DNA of 64,000 bases from Cirrosporium novae-zelandiae (taxonomy: Eukaryota). Each line of letters begins with the position of its first letter. Position 1 is the stretch's first letter. Positions 5,277 through 64,000 of the stretch are shown piece after piece. The stretch is from contig JAPETS010000001.1 of assembly GCA_026023565.1 (NCBI GenBank), positions 1,178,001-1,242,000 of the forward strand, given 5' to 3'. The notes under the pieces were generated by a model that saw only the letters and a list, made by a program, of their open reading frames with translations, did not search any database and was not told the origin of the DNA. Made by a program: the position numbers and the translations under genes.

Positions 5277-6524
5277 CTATGATCCTAACGAATTCCTACG
5301 TGTTGATGAGTTTCTTCGTTTTGAAGATATCGCATCCTCTTCCTCGAAGCTGGTAGCTAGGACTCCCCCTGAAGCCGCGCCCGTGGAAATTGTCTCGGAA
5401 TGTACCTCAACAGTCGTTTCCTGCTTCACCCCATGCATGCCCTCCATATCAATGACCAGATTTTCCTGGCTGCCTTGTTTAGACCCTCCTTTGTTGTATG
5501 TTGAACTCTTGCGGCCTCCTTCAATTGCCGTGACGGTGCCATGACCGCTTGCGATATCCCAGCGGAATTGAGCCAATCCACATGTTCTCGGAGGGTCAAT
5601 ACTCAAAAGAAGGCCACGACGAGTCAGTGAATAGATGGTGCAATTTAACCAGCCAGCCGAGGCGATCATAGCACCAACTACACAATATACATCGTAGTTT
5701 ATGTGCTTCCCCGTCATGCCTGCCATACGACTGGCAGCGAGAGGAAGCGTACATATGGTGTAGATGAGTGGATAAATAACCATGTATCGCATAGCACGGG
5801 ACGCATCTATGGCAAGGGTGGATGTAGAGGCCCAGTAGTTGGTGCGGATGCGTTGATGAAGCAAGAAGAATATGAGAGCGTAAATAGCCACGGTACCAAA
5901 CATGAAGACAAATATCCACAGATAATGGAGATAGAGTCGTTCATGGATGAATTGCGGGTTGATCCAGCACCAAGCGCCAGCCCGAGCCCAAATGTTAGTG
6001 GGATGCATAGCAACACCAATTATAGCGAGGCCGTAAGAAAATAACCAGATGCATGCTATACATACACAGAAGGTGGTAAATCCCAGCTCCAGGCCCAGGA
6101 TGACAGACCCCAGTGTATGAACAGCAATTGCAAAGATCCAGGCACTTGAAGCGACATCACCAATCTGAATGAACCAGCCTTGGGCCCAGCAGGCACACGA
6201 GCCTACTCGAATCGCATCTTCAGCCCGCCAAATCAGGGTAATGCCAAAGCCGATAGATTGTTGAAGGTCTGCTATTACAAGATTGTAAATAAGGAGGATG
6301 AACTGGTTCTGCTTGTGGCCATTCTTTCGCCAAACGTAGAAAATACGATAAGTGATGAAGCTGAAGAGGGATAATGTTGCAATGAAGGAAAGAATGGCGA
6401 AGAATGCTACCGCTATAAGGCCGTCGTGAAGAACTGGCGGAAGGGGGGAGAGAGTGAAGGGTAGCTGAGGATGAGGACCTGTCCCAAGTGCTGGTGGCGC
6501 GTCGGCTGGAACGGTAATTGACAT
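5277..6524 (-). CDS. 7-TM G-protein-coupled receptor, Git3/Gpr1-like (fungal GprC/D-type carbon-sensing class)
   Basis: Single-exon 415 aa ORF with seven hydrophobic segments; motifs LIYNLVIADLQQS, CWAQGWFIQIGD, AGAWCWI, MVIYPLIYTICTLPLA, GWLNCTIYSLTR. Confidence 0.85.
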   Translation of the reverse strand: MSITVPADAPPALGTGPHPQLPFTLSPLPPVLHDGLIAVAFFAILSFIATLSLFSFITYRIFYVWRKNGHKQNQFILLIYNLVIADLQQSIGFGITLIWRAEDAIRVGSCACWAQGWFIQIGDVASSAWIFAIAVHTLGSVILGLELGFTTFCVCIACIWLFSYGLAIIGVAMHPTNIWARAGAWCWINPQFIHERLYLHYLWIFVFMFGTVAIYALIFFLLHQRIRTNYWASTSTLAIDASRAMRYMVIYPLIYTICTLPLAASRMAGMTGKHINYDVYCVVGAMIASAGWLNCTIYSLTRRGLLLSIDPPRTCGLAQFRWDIASGHGTVTAIEGGRKSSTYNKGGSKQGSQENLVIDMEGMHGVKQETTVEVHSETISTGAASGGVLATSFEEEDAISSKRRNSSTRRNSLGS

Positions 6525-9500
6525 AGTGAGAGTAAAGGAAGAGGAGTAGAGACTGGACCTGTCAAGAATTCATGGGGAATATTAAGGTATGCAGAGTAAG
6601 AAGACATATGGGTTTTAGATATGCGGGGGATCCTTTCAGAGGATCTAAAATATGACAATAAGGGTAAAGGCAAAGAGTATATAGATCCAAGGATGATTAG
6701 CTGGTAGAAGCGGAGAAGGTGGTTTAGAAGGGAAAGAAGAAGCAAGTCTCGAATGCTAGTTGTTTCCAAAAACTGGATAATTCATGTACTCGAGTATTCT
6801 AGGGATTCTAGATAAGTTAGTTAGCTGACAACCAGGCCCTATGGATTTTTATTATGGCTATATTATTAATGATTGGTGAATTTAGCTGGGTGAAGGAAGG
6901 AAACTAATGCGGATAATTATCCCAATCCACTTACCAATGAGCAAGCAATAATTAATTAATAGTCTAATGAATGGGGTCACATCGATCTTGTGTGAAGAAT
7001 TAAACTTTTATCCAGGAACATGGGGGACTCCCAAGACCCCCAAGACTCCCACAACCCACCCACCCAATACACCCAACCCATACCCACTACACCATCCATC
7101 TATGTGCTAATCATTAATTTAGTCAACTTGGATGCAATTCCACCTTGGATTTAAAATTATCTGTCAAACATGATGATGAGAGATGTCAAGCCACAAAAAA
7201 CATATCATCCGAACAATTGCCGTCCACACACCTCTCTCTCTCGTGCCGAACGGTTTTATATGGCTTTTTATATGAGAAAGTCGGCTCCACCATCAAAACT
7301 TCCTCGGATGAATTTTCTCCCGCTATTCTCGGTTGGAATTTATAGTTCGACGTTTGGAAATTCATAACTAAAACAAAAAAGGTACAAATAGCCAACAAGA
7401 AGGAAAACCGAATGAAACGAGAACTCCCCTCATGAATCGACTCGACTCTCTTCCCGTAGAGGATGATACACCGAATAATAACTCTCTGAGCTTGAAGCGT
7501 TGCACTAGATGATCCTTCTCACGACCATGGAAAAAAAAAATGGTGAGAAGGAACAATATCTGGCCTGATATAATCCTTGGATTTCAGCTTCCCGTTGTCA
7601 TACCATATCATTTGCCACAGAGATAACTGCCTTGCTCTCCACCCCCCTTTTCAATGCATAGTAGAAGAAATCTCTGAAGTTGGCCTCAGCTTTTATCACT
7701 ATACTCCCTGCCCAGACGCCCTAAGTGCTTTTAACAGCACCAACACATTAACCATTTAACCAACTTTTTTTTCTTTTTTTTTTCTCTGGATACCTTTATA
7801 ATGCAGTGATGTTTAGGTTTGAATTAATATCACACAGTTGCCCTGGTCCGTGATGTAGAACTTATTCTCCATTTTAGTGTACTAAAGTGCAGACCCAGAT
7901 ACTCGAGTACACCACCACTGCCGACTAACGAGATCAAAGGAACCATCAACTACAATAAGGCTGAAAGTGAATCCTATCCCCGATTAAAACCGCCTGTGGC
8001 ACATTCAGTATCCAAGGGTCATTCCACCATACCATCTCCGCTCGACCCAACAAACCCAAGCCAAAAAGGAAAGAAAAAATAAAAAAAGGAAAATAAAATA
8101 AAATAAAATCATCTCACCCATTAGCTGCATCCCATTACCCTCCCGTACTGTATCGTGGCGTACCCGTCCCCAAGCAACCAAGCAACTAAGTGAGCAAGAT
8201 GATCTATAAGTTGTGAGCCGTGAATTATGGAAGCTAGGACCCCTCTACTCTTGACTTATTTTGACTTGCCCTGATATTTACCGGGGAACATGTGTAAACC
8301 AGTAACCAACTACATTACATGTAACATTATACATTCAATATGTCACAACTCCTTTTACTTCTTGCAATTCGGACTCCCTCCCTAACATTAAATAGGCATA
8401 GCAATGCAATACTACTAAAGGAGATATATAAAACTCCATCTACTCCATCTCCCTTCTCAATCTTATTCTCAATCTCAATCTCAATCTCGTACCAACCGAA
8501 CGGGTCATCGATTACTTAATTGATTCGATATCATCTAGATAGATACATAGATTATTTCCACCATCACCCACCGCCACCGCCACTACTACCACCACCACCG
8601 TGATCTCGATCTCGACTTCGATTTGAATATACTATAAATGCACTCGATGCTCAATCCACTACATCCCAATCCCAACAGCAGAAAAAGACAAAGACAAAGG
8701 AGAGGTATCATCACAACAGGGGACTAAGAAGTCCAGATAGGGGTACAAGAAAGCGAAAGTGAATACGAGTACTACTACTGCAGTTACAGCTCCTCATCCG
8801 CATCGTCAAATATCCATGAAAGGGGGGATGGGAATAGGATCCGGTATCAAAAGTTTCATTTTCCCTCTTCCTTTCCTTTCCTTAAGCTCCAGATTAGATA
8901 CCATCGCAAAAGCAAATTAAAAAAAAAAGGAAGGAAAGGTAAAAAGAATATTCCTATTTCATATACAAACAAGCCTATTTCTTATTTTCCACCATCGCTA
9001 TCCACCCTCGTACCTCTCCCTCTTCTTCAACGCTGAGAGGAATGCAACTGACTTTGTTTGCGATATAATTAATAGTTATAATTTTGTGGGGTTGGAGGTT
9101 GGTGGATGGATGATCTATTCATTTTATTTAGGGATGGGTGGGTGGGTTTGATGGGAGGAGGTGAAGAAGGTGAGGTGGGAGGGACTGCAAATCCCACCCC
9201 ACTTGGCCCTGGACCAGACAGAAGGCCAGCTACACAAACGCCCAAACAGTCAGTTGACTGGGCATTAAGAACCCGTCACTCTTAAAAAAAAGGATCCTCG
9301 GTTCGTGTGAGTCCCTAAGGGGTCCACACGCTCACGTCCTGATCCTAGTGTCCAAAGTTATATATATATACCCTACGCTGAGGCAATCTCCTTTCTCGAA
9401 ATCAAACGCAACGCAGTGCTATTACTTCCCATACTGGAGAATGTCGACTTCCATTGGCAAAGGGTGGCTGGTACGGTGGGAAACTGGTGAGTCATGTGGG

Positions 9501-17903: not shown

Positions 17904-20697
<2,794 letters not shown>

Positions 20698-24192: not shown

Positions 24193-25843
24193 ATGACGAT
24201 GGCTTTTCAAACTTCAACCTTTCATGCGGACTCGGACGCCGATGACGAGTACGAGCGAAGCGTCATGACTTCTCCCCAATTACCAACAGATTCAGAGGCA
24301 TCGCCCACCGATTCTGATCCACCTTCTGCCGAGCATACCCCTACCACGTATGGAAATCCCGCCGAGGACAGAGGGACCCCGAAGACAATGATAACAGACT
24401 GGACCGCAAAAGAGAGTGCAGGATTCATTGCTAGCCTGGGATTATCTCAGTACTCTGATGCATTTATCGGTGCGAACATTCTTCTTTGAATCTTGACGGT
24501 CATGTCACTAATGACCCCATAGAGCAGGATATTGTTGGTGCAGCTTTAGTGGTCATAAATCATGATAACCTAAAAGAGATGGGAGTACCGAGTTTTGGTC
24601 ATCGATTAACAATACTCAAAGCAATCTACGAGGTCAAGGTTAAGCAAGATATTCCTATAGGACCAGATCATTATGTGCCGATAAGTATGTTTTCGAAGCA
24701 GCTATTACATTATATGGAGACTAACACAACTTAGCTGCCGACAGGAGCAAAGAAGATGAAAAGGCCACCCAAGAGGACATTTCTCGCATAGTGCACCTCC
24801 TCCAAAAACGAGATGAGCATATAGGATCGGTGGAAGCAGAGTTACGAAGAGTACAAGAAGATTACCGGAAATTACGAGAAGACTTACTACCCATCTTCCG
24901 ACTGGCCAAGGACCGATCACAACCTTTACCACCCCCATATACGCTTAGCCCAGACTTGGGCAATGAGTACCAACCAAGTATATCCTCCCCGGCACCGGTG
25001 CAACAGCAAGAACAAAAGAGTGGTGGACTTCATCGGAAATTTTCTACTAAGAAGTTATTACTAGGATCTACCCCCAAGAACAACTCCCCTACTCATATTC
25101 CCCAATCGATACCTCAAGGCCGATCTCTTCAAGATGGTAATCTTGATCCATCAGCGGCAGCCCTGGCTGCTTCCTCTCATCTCACCGCATCTGTTACTGG
25201 AAATTCTTTATCCTCAACATCTCCCAATGCACTTAGCGCTCCCTCACCAACCTCACCTGCTAGCTATGCACCCACCTTGGGTTCTAGGTCATACCGGGAA
25301 GGCACAACTCCATCTACGAACCGGTCTATGTACACTCACGCTGAAGAAGCGCTAGCTACTCACGCCTACGCTCCTAGTACCCGTCGTGAAAATCCCACAC
25401 CAACTCCTGTCAATAATTCTCGTCGGCAAGAACAAGAACCACCAGCCGCGCCACCTAATCGGGAGAACACTCAATCCGCTGCACCCAACCTGGAAATATT
25501 CAAATCTTTCCGTGTCTCGATGGACGATCCCTGTTATAAGGTTCTTCCCGCGGCACTCAAAAAATATAATATCCAGGCAGACTGGACACAATATGCATTG
25601 TACATTGTGTATGGTGATCAAGAGCGGTGTTTAGGACTGGAGGAAAAACCACTCATCCTGTTTAAACAGCTGGATAGGGAGGGAAAGAAACCAATGTTCA
25701 TGTTGAGGAAATTGGTTGCCAATCCTGGAGAGGGGACCGCATATCCTAACCAAGGTGGAGTGGGACAGCTTGGAGAAGGGGCATACACAGGTCCTAAACC
25801 GGGAGGAGGTGGGCAGATACAGTTGCCTGGCGGAGTACTGTGA
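24193..25843 (+). CDS. STE50: MAPK adaptor Ste50 (SAM plus Ras-association domain)
   Basis: Three exons (introns ~24470-24522 and ~24685-24734). SAM: WTAKESAGFIASLGLSQY..LKEMGVPSFGHRLTILKAIY. Coiled coil. RA: FKSFRVSMDDPCYKVLPAALKKYNI..LYIVYGDQERCL..KPMFMLRK. Ends LPGGVL. Confidence 0.95.
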
Positions 25844-30012: not shown

Positions 30013-32029
30013 CTATGATTGCGTGTCCAGTTCACCCACCCTCTGTCCTATCTCTTTTAGAGCTTCAGGTCCATCAAGCTTGTCCAAAAACATCTCAATT
30101 AACTGCTCCTCAGTCAGCAATTGTTTAGCAAGCCGAATAATTCTCCAATATAGAGTAGCTTACAGTAGGTTGCTTAGGAAATTTTAGCTCCGAACTGTTC
30201 ATGATCAAGTCAAGTTCCCCTACTGTGTGCGCTTCGTATGATTGAGACTTGATATCTGGACCGAGTGCTTCAAGGAGCGATGTGTATTTCCAGTTTGGAA
30301 GATCATTGTATGGAGCACGAGGGCCGTGAATGAGACGTTCAATGGTATAGCCGGCATTATTTAGTACGAAGCTTACAATAACGAAATCACGTTATCTCAT
30401 GGACTTCTTGGTCCCAATTGCAGGATAGAGTGGGCTGAACTTACATGATAGGATTTGTTCCCTGTCTGATCAATATGGAGAGGCTTTGGACCGTCATTTG
30501 CAAGCTGCCTTCCCCGGTCACTAGAACTATTCTCTTACAGTTACCCCTTTCCTTTGCTGCGATGGTGGCTCCAACTGCAGCGCCTGTCGCCATCCCAATA
30601 CTCCCAAATACCAGTTGTGTGAACATAGCACAGCCTTCTGGGAGATGAGTTGTATTCATTCCTGCCTGCGATGTCCCCGTTTCAGGTATGACAATGTCAG
30701 ATGAGCGGAGGAAGTGGGCAAACCTAGGCCAAAGATATTTGTGGGTGATGGGAGAGGACGGAGATAAATAGGCAGGTTGAGAATAGGCAGGATATGGTGT
30801 GCACGGCATCGACTTCAAAGCCTGTCTCTTTAATGGGGACAGCTTTATGGATTTAATAAGATGCTGTAGTACCCATTTCATTCTTACATCAAACTTCTCC
30901 TCTCCAATCTTACACCAGAATCTCTCTAAACCAATGACAGCTTCAGGCTTGAAACTTTCCGTGAATGCACCCGTGTTCAGATCGCTGGGGAAATTACCGA
31001 TCCAGAGGATGCAGTCAGAGGCTTCTACAGTTTCCCTTACGTCGGGCTTGCTTGCTATGCCGGCGTATATGCCTCCAAATCTGGGGTGGTGCTCGTTAAC
31101 GCTGCCTTTGGACATTGGGCAGGTAAATACAGGGATGTCCAAAATGGACATTAGCTCTTGGGCTTCTTGGATAACTCCGTGGCGGACGGCACCTATAATT
31201 CATTAACTTCAGCTTCTTCGGTATAACCAATCCAGCCACTGAACACAAGAACAATCTAAGCGTAAAGCGGAAAGAGCGAAAGGACAGATGAATACCTCCG
31301 TCAACTACCATCACTGCATTATCATAACTCTCAAGGTTTTCTCGGATTTGATACACTAGCTTTTCTTCTAGGGTAGCATTGTTGGGGGGAAGAGTTGTGA
31401 CAAGAGGTTTTGCATCGAGATTGAGAGATGGGATTTGGTGCATTGCGATATCCCTAGGAATTCCTATATACACCGGCTTTGAATAATACAACATCGCATT
31501 GAGGACTCTGTCAATCTCTGAGGTTGCCGTATTGGGATCGGTGAGAACAGTCGTGGCACAGGATATTTGTTTGGACATTTGATGGAAGTGTCTGGATAAA
31601 TAAAATTAAACAGGCCATGCTGATGCAGGTTTATACTCGATCTACTAACTCATAATCCAGATCTCCGAGAGTGTGATGCAATATCCCTGTTCCTTTCTGC
31701 TGCTCGAGACTTGGATATCCTACAATATGCACGATAGGTACAAATTCGCAGTACGACCCCGCGACACCACATACGGCAGATAGTTCGCCAGGCCCAAATG
31801 TCGTTATTAAAGCCCCAGGAAGGCTGGAGGTACGACTATAGCCATCGGCAGAGTATGCTGCTACAAGTTCGGATGGAGATCCAAGCCATTGGAGATCGGA
31901 TTTAGGAATAAGGTCCAAGAGTGCGAGTTCGTAGTCTCCAGGAACACCAAAGATAGTCTTAATACCAAGGGAGCGGATACGGTCGAAAAGGTACGTTCCG
32001 ATTGGAATCGTGGGCATGGTAGATTTCAT
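30013..32029 (-). CDS. ThDP-dependent 2-oxo-acid decarboxylase (pyruvate/indolepyruvate/phenylpyruvate decarboxylase family)
   Basis: Five exons. Motifs FGVPGDYEL, ELVAAYSADGYSR, TTFGPGELSA, HHTLGD, ETGTS, ThDP motif GEGSLQMT..FVLNNAGYTIERLIHG. Last exon LIEMFLDKLDGP..TAG at 30013. Confidence 0.92.
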
Positions 32030-33211
32030 CGCCGGTTTTGTGTTCAGCCCTATAAACGGAACTGCTCAAGTCGAGAGTTGCTCCTAGACTAAAGGGGATT
32101 CTGTTCGCTGGGCCAAGTGGGTTGAAAGATAAAAAATCAATAAATATTGGAAATTCAAGGGGGGAAATAATAAGAAGGGATCAACTGCAGTAAACTTGAA
32201 GCATACTAGCCCTTGAAACTAGATTTCAAAAATGATGCTCAGCTGGAAATATTGAAAAGGCCTTGGACCAGCTTTAAGAACAACATAAGGGCCACAACAA
32301 GGCGGTATCCGGATCCTGATGGAAAGGAATGGGGCATAAGACTCCATCAGGAGATGCATCGTATTGAGAAATTGAAAGGATATCAGTTAGCTAACAGGAT
32401 GTGCAGGATATTCGAAGCGGAAGCAGCCGATCATGATATCTGGCAAAGTGTTGTTTACCCAAGGAGATAGAGAGGACCTTCCCAACTTATCCAAGCATGG
32501 AGTCATTAGAAATATTCTTACAAGGATTTGGAAGAATTGTGGAAACATAATTAATGATATTGCTGAGATGCCGTGGGGATGTTGATAGATAGCCGTCTCT
32601 AACCGACTATTTGAACTCCCCCTAAAAGCATTCTTACTCCCTCCTTCACCTCCCCACTTTAACCCCCAACTGCCCCCATATTTTTGGGAAGGGGAATTTA
32701 AAGGTGAAGCAATTGTTGTTTATCGTATGATTAAGTAGGAAACCGAATTAGTATCCAGTAGTTTCCCACAAAGGAAACTTCTAAGAGTTTAGACATTCTG
32801 TTTAGCAATTTAATTTACACCTCCAATGCAAATGATATCCACATTCTAGTAAGATTCGAAACCCCATCCAACGTTTCCTTGGCAATTTATCTTTCTCGAA
32901 TGGGTACTACGCCCTCACAACCCTTTATTGTACGACTTTAGGGAATCATGTAGTATGGTAAACTTGTTGGTAACCTTTTTATTAAGTAAGAGTCCATGTG
33001 ATAAGGTAAAGAATGTCTAAAGCTGATGTTTTGATCGTCGACAGAACATAGGAACTGCAAAAGCAATACCCAAAGAGCAAAAATAATAAGGCCCGTCGAT
33101 TGAGAAATATCACTGCTTCAAGGTTCTGGACCAGTGTACTGCTCTTGTGTTCCCCATTTCCCCACTCGTTCTGATAAAGTGAAGGGGGGCCGAGAACCGT
33201 TGGAATCAGGA

Positions 33212-33823
33212 TTAGCACTTTGTGTTGTACCTATAATCATTAAGTATCAATATTAAAGCTGCCACGTGAACGTGTAGAACGAGATATGAATAACTTACAC
33301 ACATGTACACCTAAAAAAGTACTCACACTTGCCTTTGTACGGTCGGATTTTCTTTCCGTTGGGACATTTATGGTATACATCGTTCACGCACTATTGTTAA
33401 AAGCCAGAATCAGTCTCACGAATTATATTTAATTCATGACAGGCCAGTAAACATGTAGATAGTAGACATGTAAATATGTCCATATCAGAGGCCCATATTC
33501 AAAACAAATCAGACAATGGAGTATCATACATGAAAATTGCACATCTCTTCATCCAAGGGGCAGTTATCCTGGAACGTTGACGTCGGAGCCAGCCCGCTAC
33601 TTGTATTGGTGGGCGTGATGGTTGCTGTAACTGGTCTCTGAGTTATACTATTACTCAATGTGGTAGAAGTTGTGGTTGACCCACTGGTTGATATAGTGAT
33701 AGTGCTGGAGGTGAGTTCGGCTGAAGAGCTTGCGCCGATGGCCGTTTCAGAAGCGGAAGATATAGCGATAGCTAGAGTAGTGATTGGGAAGATAAGGAAG
33801 GATGAAAAGTGCGAAAACTTCAT
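33212..33823 (-). CDS. Secreted protein (134 aa): signal peptide, Ser/Thr-rich stalk and C-terminal 8-Cys CSab defensin-like domain
   Basis: Exons 33823-33530, 33390-33299 and 33230-33212 with GTATGA..TAG (139 nt) and GTAAGT..TAG (68 nt) introns. Spliced C-terminus DNCPLDEEMCNFHCVNDVYHKCPNGKKIRPYKGKCEYFFRCTCVYNTKC* contains CxxxC, GxC and CxC. Confidence 0.8.
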
Positions 33824-36496
33824 CTTGAGGAATTAGTAATAGCGAAGGATAGCTTCTTTGTGACTATCTTTAGTTTCTCGTTGAACAATGTGACGATGCT
33901 GTAAGATTCTGCTGAAGATTCAGAGAGTTGTTTTTATATCCGGTCATTATATTAAATACATTCTGCAAATATTCGTAACTGATGGAGCGTTTGGAATTTT
34001 TGTCTGTCCTTTGCATGCCCAATTTGCTCTTTTGCTTGGCATAAAGTCTCGATTTCGTATCAAGGCCATACATGCCATGTTGAAGACAACAGGATTGGAA
34101 TGACAGGAGAGATCCATCGAGCAAAATTTTTGAGTTGCCCTGTCAACAAAATGGTCTGAACCGTGCGCTAACTAGTTTGTTACGGTATGCCACCGACTAT
34201 TTCGATGATTGTACCGTTCGAATTTGAATACCTTGTTTTCTCCCGGGATGCTATTAGATGTTTTTGGCTTGTTCGTATGCCTTTTCGTATGCCAAGCCTA
34301 AAAAATATCTGGATCCATGGAGAATCAAGATAGCCATAGATGGGCTCGGAAAATGTTTTGACCAGTATAGTTGGCCCATGTAACATTAACTCGCTTTGCG
34401 AATGCCTTCCACGTCAAAGAGAGCTGGGCTAGTAATATGTCTAAATCTTATTATCTATCAAAGTTAATAAAGTCTTCCCTTTTAGCTAACCGAGCCAAGG
34501 TAGGGACAAGAAAAAGTTTAGAACAGTGGTAGTCTTAATATTAATAGAGATACCTAGGACCACATTAGAATTAGTGTACATTCCATGCGTTATAAAATTA
34601 GGAATCCTTAGAATGGCAATCTAGGATAGGAATGAGATAGAGCAAGATCTGATCGTTCGTTAGCCTTCTGTTATTGCAACCAGATTCTTTCCACAAGTTT
34701 CCGTTTAGGTATTTTGAGAGTGTGAATTGTCTAGACTATGTAGTTAGATAAATTATTTGGGATATATGTGTAGGGACGATTTAGAGTGAGGCATGAGAGG
34801 TTGGCAACTCCAGAGATTGATTTAAGGTTGCCGATACTAAGGATTTATATTTTGGACAAGCGATGTGCACAGACCATGCTATGAAACCACAATATTACGG
34901 CAGTTCAATATTTACAGGGAGCTACTTGACAAGCATATTTCTAATTTTGGCAGATCTAGGAACTTTATGGATACGATGACCGTTCTTTCGTCTTATAAGA
35001 ATTAAGGTAATCGAACTCTTTTATTATCCTACATCCAACTTCCATTCAACATCATTAAGTCTTAATACTTGTACAACATGCGTCAAGCAGTGGCCCCGTT
35101 GCCGGATCCAATTCCTCTATCATATGTTTCTTGATCGAGATAGGTAGCCAAGATTCCAGTTTCTTCACATATCATCATATTTCATCAGTGATAAATGCGT
35201 TTAGTGCCCAGAAGATGGACAACAACACGGTTTTCAGTGACTCGAATTTTCTAATAAAATAGCGAATTCTGCTAAGAATACGTCAAAAGAAGGAACCCGG
35301 CTCAAACCTCACATTTTCACATCTTCCATTGTCTTTGCCGTGGGGGCTCCCTGAAAAATCTAGGGTTTCTCTTTGACATCACTTACACCGATAGTGCGTC
35401 CCATATAGCTCTACTCTAAATCAGGTGATCTCTTCAGCTACGATACACACATCATCATATCCCTAAATATAATGTCGCGGCCACAATATAGGTTGCCAGA
35501 AATAGCTACCAGGCTGCCTATTCTGCGCTTTCAGTTATCGTAGCTGCGCAGATGATCCCAGCTCTTGAGGTAACGACTCGAGCGCAGGCAAAAGCGGAAC
35601 ATGCCAGCGCTTATATTTATAATTCTACCATCAATGCCTTACTTTCTCTCTCCCTCACTATGGAATCCGGGCCTGGCCTCAAGATTTCAAACTGGGCCTC
35701 CAACGCGATTCCTATGCTGACAATGCTTTCGTTTCGAGTATACGACTCTAACGCAACCAAAGCGAGAATATCTCATTAAGATTGAGGACAGATGGAGTCT
35801 TTAGGTTGAGAGGGCAAAAACTTTATCAAGCGATGATAGTGCTGAAGGGGCAGCGAGTCATGCGTTTGCTAGATGTTCGACATGGTTTGATATTGACTCG
35901 TTACCTTATGGAGGGCTACCGCTTGATGGTTTGATTTCGTTAGTGGGAAAGGCGAGAAGCGAGTGGCGAAGAATCCCACACTTAGAGGTGAGATGTTCAA
36001 GATTTAGTGGAAGTAAGAGATTTACGTGTATTGAGATGCAGAAGATGCGATTTTCTTTTAATAGGAGTGGTGTATGTGAGTGGTTACACAAGATTAATGC
36101 AAACCGAACAAACAACGATATTTACCCGCACGTGAGACATTACCCGCAAAGCCGACTTTTCACACCAGTGACTTTCCAATGTCACTCTACTACATTTTTG
36201 TGACTAAAGTCCGTCCACTTGACTGGCTTACGGCGATTAAATAGCTTTCTCTTGAAAATAAATTTGATTCCAAAGCACGCAATTTTGTCGCACTCTGTTG
36301 CCATCGTTATGTTGGGAAAAATCATATTATCATACCTGATATGAGCTTGGGCCAAAAGCTTCAAAACCATGGCTGTGGGACCTTTCTCCGGATTTCCTTG
36401 TTTCAGGTTCCTATCAGAATTCCCCCCTCTACTTTTGTTATCTCTTCTTGCGTCATTTCTTTTGATTGAACTTGGGCCTTCTTAAGATAGGTAACA

Positions 36497-47912: not shown

Positions 47913-50900
47913 CTAAGGTGCCTCCCCAGTGTCGACTTCAGGCTGGATAATCCTAGTACCTTTGAGATGGTTCTCGATCGATGGGCTCATGTAGCTGTTT
48001 GTTGCGCTTGGCAAAGAACTGCTTTGTGGGCTTTGTGTATCCGCGGTAAGCAAAGGCGGTGTAGACGTGGGAGGAAACTCGGCTTGCGGTGAGGTCGCGC
48101 CCGATGGTTGTGCCGAGCTGAGAGATGGCGTTAGATTATTGATGATTTTGTCAATTGCAGCAACTTGTTTGCCCATACTAAACTTCCTCATCTCGAGCAT
48201 TGGCTGTTGAATTTGACCAATAAGTTTCGAACGGTCTTCCCCCTTGAGTTGAGTCAAAAGTTTCTCTGCCAAAAGTTAGAGCGAAATATGACTAGATGTA
48301 TGGAATAACTTACGGATCACATAGTTGCCGTACTGATCTCGCACTAATATTTGCGAGGGGCTCTCTCCACGTTCATTGACTGCCGTCACCATGGAGAAGA
48401 TCCGAGCCCTATGCTCGTTCGTGCCGAACTGGATGCTTTTCTCAACCACATTGCTGGCAAATTTATGTTTCGAATAGACTAGTAATTGTGCCGTAACAAG
48501 GGCGATGATTTTCACCCGATCCTCTTCTTCACCATGCTCAATTACATGTTGAATGACATAGTTTCCATATTGATCTGCAATAAGGTTTGAAGCAAATGAG
48601 TGCAGCTCACAAAGAACTGATTTTCGAGCGCCATCTTCACAATGCTCTAACATGCGTTGAATAACCCGGCAGCCATATGGATGTTGAGCAAGACGAGGTA
48701 CTTGAGTAGTGAATTCATTAATTATGAACTGAATGTGTTCGGCCGGGACCCGCTCGATTGCCTTTTGAATGACATGGTTGCCGTTCTGATCCTTGACACA
48801 CTTGATGACATGTTCATCAAGCTCCTTCACCAAGGCGGCCTGTTGATCTACTAGAATATGTTCTAAAGCCTGAGATATTATTAGTCACCAGCCATCATGG
48901 GAGATGAGTGTAGCGGATTATTACCTTTTGTACAACTCTGCATCCATACATTTGCAAGGACAGGGCTACTATATGACCCTTCATTTGGTTTGCAAGTATC
49001 TTTTTTTGAGACTGGTTGCCATGCTCAAATATCTTTTGGATAACATAGTTACCAAATACGTCGGTCATCAGTTGAAGTGAATTGGGTTGGATCTCCGCGA
49101 AAACCTGATCCTTTTCATCACTATTGGCAGTCTCAAGTTTCTGCTGGATAAACCGGGAGCCGTGTTGATCGCCACTGAACTCGACGATATGGTTGTAGAT
49201 ATCCTGAGCGCAAGAATAAGCTGCGAACGTCATGAAACTAGAGTAGATTTTGCATACCTTAAGTTCGTATTTCCTTGTAGCCTTACCATGGGACCTAAAC
49301 TCCTCTAACAAAGCGCTCCGAATGCTATGAACATCGTGGTCACGCGATGAGGTTCTTGCCGCGGCTGGGGGGACAAAAGCCCCTGCCGGTAAAGGGTAGA
49401 GGAATCTCATTCCGCTAATATTGTTATAGTCTTGGGGACTTGCATAAGGCGGTCTAGTCTGGATAGCGGGTTGTTGGTGCTGGGGTTGGAAATATGGCTG
49501 CTGTTCAAGTTGTAGTCTATTCAATTTCCGATCAAGCAGAGCAGCTTGGCCGTTCGGCATTCGTCCTGGAAAGTTCCCATTTGATGGGGTACGAACGCCT
49601 ACGGGAGGTGTTCCACCATTGGAGTAAAATATACCGTTTTGATCTCGCCGGTAATCGCTTCGTGGAGAAATGGAATCACGATTAGCAAGTTGAAAATTAC
49701 GGAACGAGCCAAATTGCTGGGAAAAAGTGCCTTCAGGTAGACCATCGGGGATGAAATTTCCAAGGTTTTGCGGATAGTTGACACTTTCAAAGTTTGTGAG
49801 GCTGTTCATAAGTACTAGATTATTTTGGGAGGCGACCTCGGCATCACTAAGGCCAATGTTTGAAGAAGGGGTCATTATAGGGGCAGATGACTGTACATAG
49901 TATGGCTCAGCATCGGTTATACTCAGTCTTCCCAAAGCCCCCTGCCAATCGGTCCCTTCTCGGAATCGAGCGTTAGAGGAATCAGAATTCGACCTGGGAT
50001 TCTCATTCTTCTGAACTTGGGACTGCGACGAGAAAGTAGATTGTATGGAAAGATTTGGTCGATGGGACATCAAATCCGTATTGGCCTGGGATTGAGAGCT
50101 ATATGTTGGGCTATTAAGTGACATCGACTCTGGTCCATCCCTGAAAGGTGGAAGATGGCCATTTGAAGGCAGACCATTAGGATTCATATACTTAGTATCG
50201 AAAGAGGGCGCTGGGAAACTCTGGGGACCCGAAATGGAGGAATTATGTGAAAATGTTGTAGGCTGAGATTGCAGTCGAATATTATGTTCAGGGTTGGAGT
50301 AGTTTGGGAATGTGCTGAAGGGAATGTCCTGATCATGAGCAGCGCATGGTACCGAAGAAGAGACATCTAGGAATGACTTCGGCGCTGTTGTGCTAGGTGT
50401 CGCCGAATTGACAGTAGCAAATTTTGATGGCGTAAAATAAGGAGAAGTGCTTCGGGGTTGGCTAATAAAGGGTTGGGATGCTGTATTTGGAGCACCATTT
50501 CGAGGCCGGAGTGGAGAGTTGTTTAGCGTAGGAGCTGGTCTACCTGAAGTAGAGGATGAAGTGGATCTCGCCTGGTTCCATGACATGCTTTGTCGATTAC
50601 TCCAACCATCAGATTCTGAAGTTGATAGCAGGGAGCTGGACCCTGTTTTGCCTTCAAATCCATCATCTTGTAATGGAAACTCTTTGATATTGTCCACTGT
50701 TGGTAGTTTGTTAATAATAACCTTGAGCCGGCTAACTAGACTTCTACTCACCTTTTTGGCGGCTGTAGTCGCTGGAAGAAGCTGTAAACCTACTTCTCAA
50801 GCTACCAGTGCCCCAGATCGAGTTGTTGTTCCAAACGTTTGGATTTCCAAAAGTAGATGAAGGTTGCTGAGAGGAGCGGGCTTGTTCTCCATTATTGGTG

Positions 50901-51046: not shown

Positions 51047-52800
51047 TGTAAATCTCTGTCGCGAACGCCTTGACTAGAAGTCTCTAGAGAGGGGATATTG
51101 AGAAGTGTAAGGTGAAGGTGGGTTTTAGCCGAGTCAGCTGAGGAGATGCAGAATGCAGTGTCTATACCGTCGAGTATATGCAAGGGAGAACGGAAATCAC
51201 TGGACCAGCACCGGCAATCAGCATAGGAAATTCAATAGAGAGTGCCAGCACCCTCGATTCAGCAAGGACTCACCATCACGATCAACCATGAGCGGCGGAA
51301 AATATGTGCCCAGGAAAATTCATATACAGCAAGGTGGTGAAGGAGAGAAAGAAGGAGGTCGTGGAGAAGGTGGGGAGAGAATCAGAGAACGCAAGGCAGA
51401 TGGTATGTATGAGTGGTACGACGGGATGACAGTCACACCCTTCGTTTGCTGGCGCTGTGTATCGGCAGGCAGCCGTAAATTGGCTGCAGCATTTACTTTC
51501 CTTTGCGCATTGGTAGTGGACCAGAATTGCCAGTCATTTCTTTCCTCAAAACTCCCGACGGAGAGGATTGCGGCGTCCTACGCTCGTATGCCTAGGCTCA
51601 GAAGAAGGTCGATGCAAGGGGGCTGCAGGCTATGGGTTTGGAATGAAGTGCTCTTAGGGCGCTCCCTGGTATGGAATGCCGATGATGGCGGATGGAGGAG
51701 CAAAAGAAATGGGGTAGTTACACAGGCTATAAGTATGAAATCCTAGGAGCCTTGCGACAGGAGTAGAAAGTGAGAGGGAAAAGTATAGGTAAAGTGTTTT
51801 TTGGGGGGGTGTGTGAGAAAAGAATCAAGGAAAGAGGTGTAAGGTATCCTTTTATTATTATTATTTTTTCTTTTCAACCTGAGAGAGTAGAAAGGCTGCG
51901 GTTTTGTTTTCGCTTGGAATTTGGAATGGGTTATGTCACTTGGGGGGGTTATACTGAAGGAGAATTGGGAATTGAGACTTTTGACAGGGTCATTTAACGG
52001 AGCCTTACCTATTTCGCCCTTAAGTCACGGTTAAGGCTTATCGAAATGTATTGTCACCGAGAAACACTATCTACCTAAGGGAAGAGTGCTGGCTAAGCCT
52101 ATTTTTTTCATCCAAGTGACATCTTCGTACCAAAGTTTACCGAGTTTACCCAAATTTACCATTAATGAAAGGGGTGGCAACTTTCACTAAAGCCCCGGGA
52201 ACTGGTCTCTGAACTTTCCGAGGGGGGATGGGGGTTATGTGTCATTTACTACATTTACTAAACTTCTCAATGAACCGCCGCTCGTTTCAAGCCATTCCCC
52301 AGAGCGTTGGTGGCATTTGGGGAAGGAGGGCGTTGGGGCCAGCTCGCTTCAGATACACATCTTTAACAACCATAATAAAACTTAAATATATCAATCTCTC
52401 AAGGGGTCAAACACAATATAATATAAACTTATAATTCATCGAACTGTCCTTTTTTCTATCCCCAATTCAAAATCTTTCAATCCTTTCATTTGAAAAATCC
52501 CGGACCACTCTTTTTTTTCTTTTTCTTTTTTTTACCTTTTTTCCTTTTGATTCCAGGAGAAGTTCATAGATCCTTCATCTTCATATCATCATTTCCACAG
52601 CCTCATCAAAATATAACCGCATTAGCATGGATCAGATCCGAGAGCTCATCGAACCAGATGGCTGGAGCTGGCTGGTCATTGTGGTCTTGAAGTTCCTTGT
52701 ACCTGGTTGTGGAGAAATGACTGGAGCCAGCGGCCATAGCAGCTCAAAGTGTTCTCAGATCTGCTGGAGACAAATCCCGAAGGTTGAAACTTGATTACAG

Positions 52801-52846
52801 TACATACACACACACATACATACATACATACATAAATACACACATT

Positions 52847-52880
<34 letters not shown>
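52801..52880. repeat. Compound (CA)n/(CATA)n microsatellite
   Basis: tacatacacacacacatacatacatacata...cacacacaca read directly. Confidence 0.9.
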
Positions 52881-52883
<3 letters not shown>

Positions 52884-54412
52884 CCAAGGTAATAATGAGA
52901 TAACCTGAGAGCTTTCCACGTCTCACATTTTAATATTTTCTTTATATATCTTTGATTTTTGCTCCTATTATTATTATTGTTGTTGTCATCTTAATAGGAA
53001 TACTATGAGTTCTTTCGACCACAGCTGAGTTGGATAGATAATTCAAGTGAATTTCTTGCCCAGCCCTATCTCTTAGGGCTGACCTTTCTTGGCGGTTTCG
53101 TTATTTGCTCCCCTCTTTTTAAATGGCTCATTGTTAGTTACATGACCCCCCGTCACCACCATCATCTACCATCATCCCGATATTAAAATATCGCCGAGTT
53201 AGGCAAGGTCAGTCATCTACCAATGCAGATCATATTGAATCATATTGGTCAAGCTGAGTGGGTTAGTTGAATCGGATATTCTCTGTGTCCGTGTTGTTCG
53301 TGTTTGCTGAATTAATTCCCTAGGCATCATGTACACCCTCTCTTCCCTAGGGCAAGTGAAGAGAGTGCCTTGGAACTGAACTTGTTTATGCCAACACCGC
53401 CAACTCACTCCTTTTCCTCATCCCCTCTACCCTAAATTTAATTCAGAGTCGAAAATGGTCCAAGCTAGCTGATAGAATAAAGCTGCTATTGATTTCAACT
53501 ATGCCCTCATTCTGTTCTTCATGCCAACCATCGTTACAGACCCAGTTGACAAAGTTTGTTGTTGAAACTGACATCGAGTTGCAAAAAAGCCTGCTATCTA
53601 TCTATCCATCGCCCTGTTCATTCCTCGGACAACCCGAAATCGAATATTGTTTGATTTTACAGTTTAGGTTATCCAGGAGCTCTACAGCACACATTGAATA
53701 ATCGGGCTCTGCTTTTCCAGATGGGCGAATGCAGTTCAGCCATGCTGCACCTTGGAAGCGCAACGTCCCGTCCGAATCTACACCGACTGCCCTCAATGTC
53801 CAATTCTGATGCCAGAATACTGCTTTCCTACTCAACATATCCTCGTATAGAATAGTAGCCTCGAAATATGTCGAGATCGTTTTCTAGAGAATACAATAAA
53901 TAGTGCCCAATACTGCTTGGGTAGACCGCCGTGAATTATCGTAGTCGACACGTCGCATCATTTCTGAGTTGTTAAATCTAAGACAAGGCTATTGGCAGGG
54001 TAATCCAGGCCCAAGAACGGAGACTGAATTCTACTCCAATGTGTAACGAGATATGCTGAGGTCGTCTTCAAGCAAATCAAACAGTCCTTTATGCTCGCCG
54101 TATCAAGAGATAAAATTTACTTCTGTATACGACACTCGCTGCTGTACTATGACTTATGACTTATGACTTCTACTTGTCACAATAACCCCGAGATTGTGAC
54201 CGGCCGGTGTGTTTTTGACAAGTTCTAATAATTTTGAACATGAAATCCATTTCTCTGCATCGTCGCAATACAGCGTAACTATCAAGGCCTTCATACTTCA
54301 GCAGGACCAGTTCATGCTTCATCTGCCTTGAAGTAGAATACAAAGTCCCTAATTTTCACCACTAGCATCCCAGAGTCTAATCCATGAATCACGCCACAAC
54401 CATTCTCATTGT

Positions 54413-60008: not shown

Positions 60009-61081
60009 TTATGTCTGAGCTTTCCCCGAAGAGACAGCTCCGACCCCACTGAACAGCTTGCTCTTGACCAAGGCAGCCATAAGCCCCGTAGCCTCCTCCT
60101 TAGCAATCTTTTCCCCATCCCGAACTACTTTGTCCAAATGAGGATCATGCAGGGTCTTTTGCCCCACCTGTGGACGACTCCCGGAAATGGCTTTCTCGGC
60201 CTGGCGTATCTTTTGGCTGAGGTCCATCATCTGCTTGGTAGTGTAATCTCGATTGGTCAGCAAGGGACTGCGACTCAAGGTTGAGACCCAATATTTATTC
60301 CAAAGAAGTTCGAGCAAATGGGAATCGAGCGTGCTTCTAAAATGTGAGACCTCGAGGGAGTAGTATGAGTTTGCGTGGGCACCGAATTCTTCGATCTTTG
60401 CCAGTGGAATCGATTGATATTCATCATCTTCACCTCTGGATTTTGGCAGATGATAGTCCTCAGGGAATGTACGAAAGGCACCAATCTCAACCTTTCCCGC
60501 CGAGATGGTGCGTTCTGGGTCTATGACCACAGCGAGAAATGGATCTTGATATTTCTGTTGGTCCTTCTGGGTTCCCACATCAATCCCGCTTAACCAGCAT
60601 CCGTATCCTGGATGGCTGTGATACCACCCTACTGCATTCTCCATCCTTCCAGATTCTCGCGCTTGCTGGAGATAGTTGACCATATACTCATTTGCTTCAT
60701 CCTGGGCATTCACCCTGGTTTCTGTACCTGTAACTGGCAATCTGAAAGCATCGGTAACAATGAAAGTGCCATCAGTTACTTTACCCTGCATCAAGCCCAT
60801 GATCTCAAGGGAGCCTCCTGAGCGAGCATGCATGACCATTTTGAGGAGGGCGATTGCGGAAATGCGGACATGTTTGAAGTAATGGGGATCTTTGGCCCAT
60901 GGCTTTGCCGCATTAAAGGATTTTTGCTCCTCACCATCGAATCCATATAGCGCATCTCGGTGGGGGTTTACGAGTTCCACGGAGTTTTCCAGCTCTGTGT
61001 AAATGTTAGTTAGCAGATGTGATATAAAGAGGGGCAAAGTTGAGATAAAGGCTTACCCCAGCTCTTCAGAGCCGAATTCAT
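60009..61081 (-). CDS. CSN5: COP9 signalosome subunit 5 (JAMM deneddylase)
   Basis: Exon 1 MNSALKSW from ATG 61081, GTAAGC intron, then [34 protein letters not shown] (JAMM), LLWNKYWV. Confidence 0.97.
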
Positions 61082-62302: not shown

Positions 62303-64000
62303 ATGGATACTTCATACCTAACAACACAAATTGGCAATATCATCGACCAGCTTCATGGATTATTTGACGACATTGGAGTTCCTAATCATGAACGAAACAC
62401 ACGAGAAACAGAGGTAGTCCTCTAAATCACGCTTCCAAGATGGGCATAAACTAATGCGACCAACAGTTATATAAAGCTCTATCAGATGCTTTACAGAATC
62501 ACCTACGCCATGTGACATCGTGAGTACTTCTTTTGCCCCTAATGTTTAACAATTGGGCTGACTCTATACAGAGAGAAGAATGATATGATTGAAGAAGTAA
62601 ACAACATTATAAAAACCATAAAACAAATGGCAACATCCCTAAATGACAACAAGAATGGCAAATACGACCTTAACGATGATGAACTAAAAGTTTCATTTCC
62701 TCTAACCCAATGTTTACAATCATTGAAAGAGAAGCACAACAGCATTAGCAGAATACATCGCGAACGATATGAGCAAGTTAAAAGTAGGTGAAGGCTAATT
62801 AGACACCTTTATAATTCTAATCATTTATAGAACTCGTCGAAGCGCTCCAGTCATACTCATCACACCTTGAGCCATCTTTTGTGAAAATCCCACTTCCTCC
62901 TACTTCAACGAATGGCTCTTGCCCCCCAACATTTGACCTCTCACCTTCTTATGTTGAAGCCCTTGACAATGAATTTACGTCTGTCTATGAAGAGTATATG
63001 CGCCGTGTCGACGTGACCAAGAAGGTCGCCGAAGAAATTGTAAAGCTATGGGCCGAACTCGGCACACCACAAGCTCAGACAGATGGCGCAATCGTCAAAA
63101 ATTGGCGCGACACTCCAGAGCAGCTTGGGCTGCATGAGGATGATATTATTAGACTACAAAGTAAAAGAGACAGGCTTTCGGACGAAAAGAAGTCTCGCGA
63201 ACGAAAACTAAAAGACTTGAAGACCACAATTGAAGGCCTCTGGGATCGCCTTGGAGTGGAAGAAAGGGATAGAAAGGCATTCCTCGCTGCCAACCGCGGC
63301 TGTGGTCTTCGCAACTTGAACGAATTTGACCGTGAATTAAACAGACTCAATGAACTCAAGAGACAAAATCTCCACTTGTTTGTGGAAGACGCAAGGTGCA
63401 AATTGCAAGAACTTTGGGATGCTCTGTATTTCTCTGAGGAAGAGATGCTCGACTTCACTCCTGCCTTTTCCGATGTTTGCAGTGACGCTCTCTTGTCCGC
63501 TCATGAAGCTGAAATTGAACGGCTTGAAGCTTTGAAAGAACAACGCACTCCCACGCTCCACCTAATCGACCGCCATCGCTCTATACTCCAGGACAAGGAA
63601 GCATTAGCCGCATCGAGCCAGGATGCCTCTCGCTTGACGGCTCGTGGTGCCAAGGGCGAGAGACGGGATCCAACGCGTCTATTGCGTGAGGAGAAGATGC
63701 GAAAAAGGATTACCAAGGAGCTACCGAAGGTGGAAGCCGAACTGCGGAAGGCTCTAGAACGCTGGGAAGATGAATACGGCAGGCCATTTCTCGTACATGG
63801 AGAAAGATATCTTGATGAATTAACCGCTCCTACTTCCAGGGCCCCTCCTCCAAGGCCCAAGACCGCGGCCGGCCATCGTCCTCCAACTCGAATGGGAACT
63901 ACAACTACAACTACAACAGTGCCAACAAAAACCGGGTCGCCTACGAAACGCCCTGGTCACTCGTCCTCAAACTCTGTACCCTCACGTGCAAACTCTGTGC
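62303..64000 (+). CDS. ASE1: Ase1/PRC1/MAP65 spindle-midzone microtubule bundler (5' part; continues past the window)
   Basis: MDTSYLTTQIGNIIDQLHGLFDDIGVP, three short introns, then LWAELG, LWDRLGV, ELKRQNLHLFVEDARCKLQELWDALYFS, DASRL..RDPTRLLREEKMRKRITKELPK..WEDEYGRPFLVHGE. Confidence 0.93.

Follow-up and report, generated by a model that had tools for sequence, protein, structure and literature searches.

Does a short Ser/Thr-rich open reading frame (ORF) of the fungus Cirrosporium novae-zelandiae conceal a spliced gene for a defensin-like peptide, and what kind of precursor would such a gene encode? The ORF lies on the minus strand of a 64,000-nucleotide (nt) stretch of contig JAPETS010000001.1 (positions 1,178,001 to 1,242,000), which we call the window and in which all positions of the gene and its neighbours are counted. 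C. novae-zelandiae belongs to the Pezizomycotina, class Xylobotryomycetes. An earlier reading of the DNA letters, here called the sequence-only reading, had proposed that two introns extend the ORF to a three-exon gene, in which a Ser/Thr-rich stalk is fused to an eight-cysteine domain of the cysteine-stabilised alpha/beta (CSαβ) defensin type. From homologue searches, gene structure comparison and structure models of relatives, we find that the locus is probably a genuine three-exon Pezizomycotina gene for the precursor of a secreted CSαβ defensin-like peptide, part of an eight-Cys group.

Gene structure and the deposited gene model

The gene runs from 33823 to 33212 and has all its parts on the minus strand. 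Unspliced, the ORF (33524..33823) encodes 99 amino acids (aa), ending in ...CNFHV before a TGA at 33524. Two canonical GT..AG introns join three exons. Exon 1 (33823..33530) has 98 codons, from the ATG at 33823 to ...CNFH. Intron 1 (33391..33529, 139 nt) follows in phase 0 and interrupts the CxxxC motif; it reads GTATGA...AACAATAG and ends in TAG. Exon 2 (33299..33390, 92 nt) encodes CVND...RCTC plus two bases of a Val codon. It extends from Cys3 to Cys7 and includes the loop with the extra Cys4, the GxC motif, the c-loop and the CxC motif. Intron 2 (33231..33298, 68 nt) is in phase 2, reads GTAAGT...GATTATAG and also ends in TAG. Exon 3 (33212..33230) adds the last base of the Val codon, YNTKC with Cys8, and a TAA stop. 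The Ser/Thr-rich ORF and the positions and phases of both introns agree with the sequence-only reading, as do its other statements on the letters themselves.

The spliced product has 134 aa. Its first 24 codons (33752..33823) form a signal-peptide-like start, MKF..., in which a basic residue precedes a ~16-residue hydrophobic core and the small residues of ..SSA, the putative cleavage site. Kyte-Doolittle means over nine residues reach 2.0 across residues 7-21, and the MKF start aligns with the MKF/MR starts of the homologues described below. Codons 25-84 (33572..33751) encode a Ser/Thr-rich segment, in which 33 of the 60 residues (55%) are Ser or Thr. Its charged residues are one Arg, the only K/R, and two acidic ones, and N73 belongs to a single N-x-S/T sequon. 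The segment has no dibasic pair; the sole such pair of the protein is KK at 111, within the Cys domain. We looked for a tandem DNA repeat under this segment and detected none. The sequence-only reading had given the stretch ~65 residues and no KR/RR site, in line with these counts.

The Cys domain comprises residues 85-134 (50 residues), with eight Cys, and with eight K/R against six D/E, as counted before. Its first part (codons 85-98, 33530..33571) holds Cys1, the n-loop, Cys2 and the first three residues of CxxxC. The Cys spacing of the whole domain is 6-3-7-12-5-1-5 (C-x6-C-x3-C-x7-C-x12-C-x5-C-x-C-x5-C), the one predicted by the sequence-only reading. All six canonical CSαβ cysteines are in the spliced product, plus two extra ones. 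The His before Cys3 is retained, and at the canonical fourth Cys the gene reads K-G-K-C, with Gly at position -2. A TATA-like element, TATAAAAA (33931..33938), is located ~108 nt upstream of the ATG on the same strand and may act as promoter.

At NCBI the locus is represented by 'MAG: hypothetical protein M1834_000389 [Cirrosporium novae-zelandiae]' (156 aa, P0003; MAG, metagenome-assembled genome), which is 100% identical to our product over exon 1. The deposited model has the same intron 1, then uses a competing GTGAGT donor within exon 2 (33321..33326, minus strand) with the same intron 2 acceptor, and a scripted splice at these sites matches P0003 letter for letter. The sequence-only reading had pointed to this donor at ~33327; it starts at 33326. 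Its use shifts the frame and leaves a protein with 5 Cys and a 36-residue tail. Across the window, GTAAGT occurs 29 times (38 expected) and GTGAGT 30 times (30 expected), counts that do not rank the two donors.

Comparison with homologous proteins indicates that the three-exon, eight-Cys model is right and that the public 156-aa model is a mis-splice at intron 2, because the homologues share all eight Cys, the C-x-C-x5-C end and, in the case of P0005, an identical C-terminus. The last seven residues of the window product are the C-terminus of P0005, the best homologue, and five of these seven come from exon 3. The search profile did not contain this exon 3 pentapeptide, and P0005 nevertheless ends in the very same five residues. 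The preference of the sequence-only reading for the three-exon model over the GTGAGT alternative is therefore upheld.

Fungal relatives and the predicted fold

The relatives were collected with a profile of 45 positions (A1), built as an overlap alignment of two window-encoded pieces only, and searched with HMMER against 1,835,955,588 representative proteins. Eight proteins were found at E ≤ 0.001, one of which is the deposited protein P0003. Five were small fungal homologues, P0005-P0009, with E values from 1.8e-9 to 1e-4 in this database. They originate, in this order, from Macrophomina phaseolina, Trematosphaeria pertusa, Clohesyomyces aquaticus, a Phaeosphaeriaceae species and a Piccolia ochrophora MAG, and all are labelled 'hypothetical protein'. 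P0004 and P0010 were rejected as homologues, being repeat proteins that matched a short piece of the profile several times. A profile of P0005-P0009 retrieved two further relatives, P0012 and P0013. P0011 was added through a cluster look-up, and one genomic locus (L001) through a metagenome scan with alignment A5. Longer fused forms of the family (236-2000 aa) were not found at E up to 1, which is weak evidence.

By alignment and blastp, all eight Cys of the spliced domain are aligned with those of the relatives. The domain is 63% identical to P0005 (46 columns), 50-52% to P0007, P0008 and P0011, and 43% to P0009. The C-x-C-x5-C end is found in all six relatives with a complete C-terminus, and the Gly of GxC is invariant in the 5-member alignment A2 (G86). 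The core shared by the window gene and the group is ..C-x-F-H-C-x-N-x-V..K-C..G..P..G-x-C..C-x-C-x5-C. From these alignments, the window gene is placed in a small eight-Cys group of Dothideomycetes and lichen-associated MAGs, so far unnamed. By the same comparison, neither the additional loop Cys nor the one at the C-terminus is peculiar to the window gene; both characterise the family. The sequence-only reading had recognised both correctly, and had presented them as special to this gene, which they are not.

The introns are also comparable. In L001, intron 1 (85 nt) lies in phase 0 after CNFH, at the same codon as in the window gene. P0012 is an unspliced ORF that reads through intron 1 from this codon and resumes at the next Cys, and P0013 also breaks there. 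Intron 2 of L001 (2584-2646 of that locus) is in phase 2 and in the c-loop, at the sixth codon after the GxC Cys. P0006 and P0012 end where it begins, suggesting that intron 2 is placed alike in their source genes. In the window gene it is found at the ninth codon after the GxC Cys, three codons or five alignment columns further than in L001; this shift could be due to intron sliding or to loss and regain. L001 has TATATAAG ~135 nt upstream of its ATG.

Several side observations concern these sequences. Intron 1 of the window gene has a 15-nt unit in 2.1 tandem copies at 33446-33476, which may explain its greater length (139 nt) compared with its L001 counterpart (85 nt). Three of the deposited relatives look faulty as gene models: P0006 ends at the intron-2 donor, without the last three Cys, P0007 has 49 extra residues ahead of a signal-like MRSF start, and P0009 begins inside the signal region. 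P0011, near-identical to P0008, is encoded without interruption (107 aa) on a Logan contig of 1747 nt. This contig is either an intronless gene or an assembled transcript, and in the latter case it would be expression evidence for the family.

The group may already have been described. Table 1 of PMC4165938 includes beauvesin1, pyrelysin and risin, fDEF1 members of 52-55 residues, which may belong to it. A literature search for these three peptides led back to PMC4165938 alone. A full-text literature search for the motifs CNFHC, CKFHC and CRFHC returned no defensin paper by title.

The fold was predicted with AlphaFold on the mature parts of two relatives, using an 8-row family alignment, and that of the window domain is inferred from them. 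The P0005 model (56 aa) had a predicted local distance difference test (pLDDT) score of 78.5 and a predicted template modelling (pTM) score of 0.57, with a helix at residues 11-22 and strands at 35-40 and 48-52. The P0009 model (53 aa) had a pLDDT of 78.9 and a pTM of 0.51, with a helix at residues 8-17 and strands at 31-36 and 44-48. In both, one helix is followed by a beta-sheet. The top Foldseek match against the PDB was copsin for both P0005 (probability 0.96, E 0.067) and P0009 (probability 0.80, E 0.21), followed by micasin, eurocin, actinomycesin, MGD-1 and plectasin derivatives. With a Foldseek-independent aligner (48,161 chains), defensin-type/CSαβ proteins occupied ranks 1-13 for P0005 and ranks 1-12 for P0009, and the first unrelated chains followed at rank 14 (Z 2.9) and rank 13 (Z 3.1), respectively. 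Among these top ranks are FS50, brazzein, termicin, drosomycin and Ah-AMP1, which we take to be CSαβ proteins; the others were counted by their titles. Copsin reached Z 3.4 (50 residues aligned) and Z 4.0 (48 aligned). AlphaFold and Foldseek had been named as a check in the sequence-only reading. Applied here to P0005 and P0009, they gave defensins as the best matches, plectasin derivatives included, with modest scores.

The spliced product has the CSαβ framework Cys1...Cys2-x3-Cys3...Cys4...Cys5-x-Cys6, as outlined in PMC5234102, and the Gly at -2 of the canonical fourth Cys, which the Figure 1 legend of that paper names as a feature. In micasin-type fungal defensin genes, the helix is interrupted by a phase-0 intron and the c-loop by a phase-2 intron, according to the account of gene structures by Wu, Gao and Zhu 2014 (PMC4165938). 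Intron 1 of the window gene, between CNFH and C, is a phase-0 intron in the alpha-helical region; intron 2 has phase 2 but follows CxC. A CSαβ defensin-like nature of the domain, as proposed from the DNA letters, is supported by modelling and comparison, because family homology, the defensin matches of the two relatives' models and the micasin-type intron in the CxxxC helix point in the same direction.

The precursor and the competing explanations

The feature that sets the window gene apart is, by alignment, its precursor, in which a long Ser/Thr-rich segment replaces a short cleavable pro-peptide. In all nine relatives covering the region, the pro-peptide ends in a basic site followed by x-x-G-Cys1, the site being KR in eight and AR in one. 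The Ser/Thr-rich segment occupies the place of this pro-peptide. At the junction the window gene reads ..T-F-Q-D-N-C, and its first basic pair is at residue 111. Some fungal defensin-like peptides are known to carry N-terminal extensions, for example the 38 Gly-rich residues of micaDLP described in PMC4165938. We found no report of a Ser/Thr-rich extension on such a peptide within a limited reach of the literature.

From these data a course of events can be proposed. The N-terminal signal sequence would lead the protein into the endoplasmic reticulum. The 50-residue C-terminal domain would fold as a helix packed on a beta-sheet, as in the models of the two relatives, and form four disulfides, most likely Cys1-Cys5, Cys2-Cys6, Cys3-Cys7 and Cys4-Cys8, by analogy with MGD-1. 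O-mannosylation of Ser/Thr segments is generally known from fungal secretory proteins, and the segment that stands here instead of an acidic pro-peptide with a KR site is probably modified in this way. It probably also stays attached, because there is no dibasic (Kex2-type) site. The most likely role, by analogy, would be antibacterial defence through binding of a cell-wall precursor, since lipid II is the target of every one of the four fungal CSαβ defensins that have been characterised (plectasin, eurocin, micasin, copsin), according to the overview in PMC6272156. The lipid II contacts of plectasin given in a review (PMC10771296) are Phe2, Gly3, Cys4, His18 and Cys37. The Gly before Cys1 and a free N-terminus, which are part of this pocket, are missing from the window gene, and therefore target or potency may differ; by this analogy, a plectasin-like lipid II pocket is doubtful here.

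A bolder idea is that of a 'glyco-defensin', in which the domain is never released and an O-mannosylated, mucin-like stalk holds the four-disulfide CSαβ domain in the wall or extracellular matrix. We consider it unlikely, although the composition of the segment makes stalk display in the wall possible. The protein ends with the Cys domain and has no C-terminal anchor signal. If true, the 'glyco-defensin' would be a standing surface shield, or an adhesion or recognition module, of a lichen-associated fungus instead of a diffusible antibiotic, and its altered N-terminal pocket would point to a target other than the plectasin-type lipid II site.

Several results weigh against a secreted CSαβ defensin-like peptide from a three-exon gene. 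The gene is known from genomic sequence and homology, and the fold from models of two relatives with shallow 8-row alignments. No Foldseek E value reached 0.001 (best 0.067) and Z was never above 4.0, while the aligner itself warns that Z < 8 may reflect a mere common arrangement. Low absolute scores are to be expected at this protein length, ~50 residues; the result still falls short of proof. The profile link to known defensin families, which the sequence-only reading had suggested looking for, did not materialise. Pfam gave no match at E up to 10 for the window pieces P0001 and P0002 or for P0003, and among the five relatives it matched P0009 alone, to PF01097 Defensin_2, below the cut-off (E 0.79; 10.1 bits, cut-off 20.4). 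Sequence and profile searches of the PDB (P0003, A1, A3) returned low-complexity or signal-peptide matches only. In the ESM Atlas, residues 84-120 of P0003 and 49-104 of P0005 had no usable feature match, and the structural neighbours of the low-confidence models were unrelated proteins. The window gene also departs from its relatives. The Gly before Cys1, present in 9/9 relatives, is Asn; the GG after the GxC Cys, present in 7/7, is absent; two residues are missing from the c-loop; and intron 2 follows CxC instead of interrupting the c-loop. These departures could mean relaxed constraint.

Three other explanations have to be set against the secreted CSαβ precursor. That the deposited 156-aa, five-Cys, Ser/Thr-rich secreted protein with its 36-residue tail is the true product seems to us very improbable. 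GTGAGT is a good fungal donor that was picked by an automatic pipeline, and both donors could be used in vivo. The resulting protein, however, has an odd number of Cys and loses the CxC kept by 6/6 relatives with a complete C-terminus, whereas the alternative splice gives the last seven residues of P0005 exactly. The tail of P0003 has no homologue in the exhaustive search of 1,835,955,588 proteins, P0003 being matched over residues 84-120 only, and its ESM Atlas model is poor (pLDDT 0.38, pTM 0.11). Somewhat less remote, yet still improbable, is that the domain has a different fold, or a different function such as effector or channel blocker, and that this small disulfide-rich module shares only the CxxxC/CxC spacing with defensins. 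The low fold-match scores and the lack of a sequence-profile link to any defensin family would fit such a module, and the fold lists also contain same-fold scorpion toxins and channel blockers. Against it, two independently modelled relatives have the same helix/sheet order, with fungal defensins at the top of their match lists (copsin, micasin, eurocin, plectasin), the gene has introns of the micasin type, and the G-x-G-C start of the relatives after KR resembles a plectasin-type N-terminus.

More weight than to these two is due to the explanation that the locus is an eight-Cys defensin gene in decay or drift, which is not expressed or whose product has ceased to work as an antimicrobial; we judge it unlikely, yet a real alternative. 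The pro-peptide and its KR site would then have been lost to a low-complexity Ser/Thr run and key residues changed. Of ten family members, the window gene alone does not have the (K/A)R-x-x-G-C junction, and the invariant GG and two c-loop residues are missing as well. Wu et al. 2017 (PMC5234102) describe fungal defensin-like peptides (fDLPs) of Zymoseptoria in which antimicrobial activity has probably been lost, and also pseudogenes. Arguing against decay are a frame that is intact over three exons, two canonical introns, the retention of all eight Cys, GxC and the His before Cys3, the presence of the signal-like start and TATA-like element, and 63% domain identity to P0005.

Taken as a secreted CSαβ defensin-like precursor, the gene is relevant in several respects. 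Plectasin, copsin and other CSαβ defensins of fungi serve as models for antibiotics that act on Gram-positive bacteria. The three-exon model corrects the public annotation, in which the defensin domain is concealed, and it draws attention to a small group of eight-Cys proteins from Dothideomycetes and lichen-associated fungi, all members of which are labelled 'hypothetical protein' and lie outside any Pfam family. If retained and glycosylated, the Ser/Thr-rich segment would be an unusual way to deploy a defensin fold. The finding extends a known family and does not overturn current understanding.

Genomic surroundings and known systems

The gene stands alone in 32100-36490, ~4.4 kb without another long ORF. 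On one side there is a thiamine-pyrophosphate enzyme gene (30441-32065, minus strand; the Pfam match covers 30441-31199), and on the other, from 36491 on the plus strand, ORFs that by their appearance resemble a membrane transporter. Pfam searches on raw ORFs further recognised a Gpa2-type G-protein-coupled receptor C-terminal domain (5277-6569), a Cdc48-type AAA ATPase (18540-20697), an RA-domain protein (24725-25843), a PUF RNA-binding protein (48895-50796), CSN5/JAB (60009-61052) and MAP65/Ase1 (62821-63999). The window is an ordinary fungal chromosome arm with housekeeping neighbours, not an effector island. Four homologues searched by tblastn against the window gave exon 2 as the sole significant match, and no second copy of the gene was found in these 64 kb. 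A weak recurring match at 52838-52942 was rejected as a paralogue, as it stems from a (TG)n/(TATG)n microsatellite (52800-52885, minus strand read) translating to CVCVCV.

Two known systems bear on the precursor. Art v 1, the mugwort allergen, is a modular protein that combines a low-complexity, heavily glycosylated region with a domain of defensin fold. Its structure (PDB 2kpy) matched the relatives' models with Z 2.5. Unlike the window protein it is from a plant, its glycosylated region is C-terminal and Pro/Hyp-rich instead of N-terminal and Ser/Thr-rich, and there is no sequence relation. Closer in taxonomy are micaDLP and the N-terminally extended malpisins, fungal defensin-like peptides whose mature form has an N-terminal extension; theirs is Gly-rich and cationic, not Ser/Thr-rich, and they belong to another fDLP family (fDEF8).

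With respect to the domain, plectasin, eurocin and micasin (six-Cys peptides of the fDEF families) share the C...CxxxC...GxC...CxC framework and, in their genes, the micasin-type arrangement of a phase-0 intron within the helix and a phase-2 one close to the c-loop. His18 of plectasin corresponds to the His before the third Cys of the window gene. The precursors of these defensins resemble those of the relatives, with a signal, an acidic pro-peptide and a basic site. In structural alignments with the relatives' models they had Z 3.2-3.8 and 28-41% identity over 36-39 aligned residues. The group studied here differs by two extra Cys, one in the 20-residue helix-to-strand loop and one at the C-terminus. 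The window gene itself differs further by the missing cleavage site, the Asn for Gly before Cys1, the 60-residue Ser/Thr-rich segment and the position of intron 2 after CxC.

Copsin of Coprinopsis cinerea (PDB 2mn5), the best structural match of both modelled relatives, is also a secreted fungal CSαβ peptide with more than three disulfides. Its mature form has 57 residues, compared with 53-56 in the relatives and 50 in the window domain. It has six disulfide bridges and binds lipid II, as summarised in PMC6272156, whereas four bridges are expected here. It is a basidiomycete peptide, its identity in the structural alignments is 24-32%, and we found no similarity at the HMMER level.

A parallel to the predicted disulfide pattern is MGD-1 of mussel (PDB 1fjn), which ranked sixth for P0005 and fourth for P0009 in Foldseek, with template modelling scores by target of 0.69 and 0.68. 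Its eight Cys follow the same order, and the fourth of its bridges links a Cys of the post-helix loop to a C-terminal Cys. The bridges reported for it in PMC5484132 are Cys4-25, 10-33, 14-35 and 21-38. A fourth bridge from loop to C-terminus, put forward in the sequence-only reading as a distinctive trait, thus has a precedent in Cys21-Cys38 of MGD-1, and its novelty was overstated. MGD-1 comes from an animal, has 39 residues and a far shorter loop, and the extra bridge of MGD-1 and that of the fungal group are probably of independent origin.

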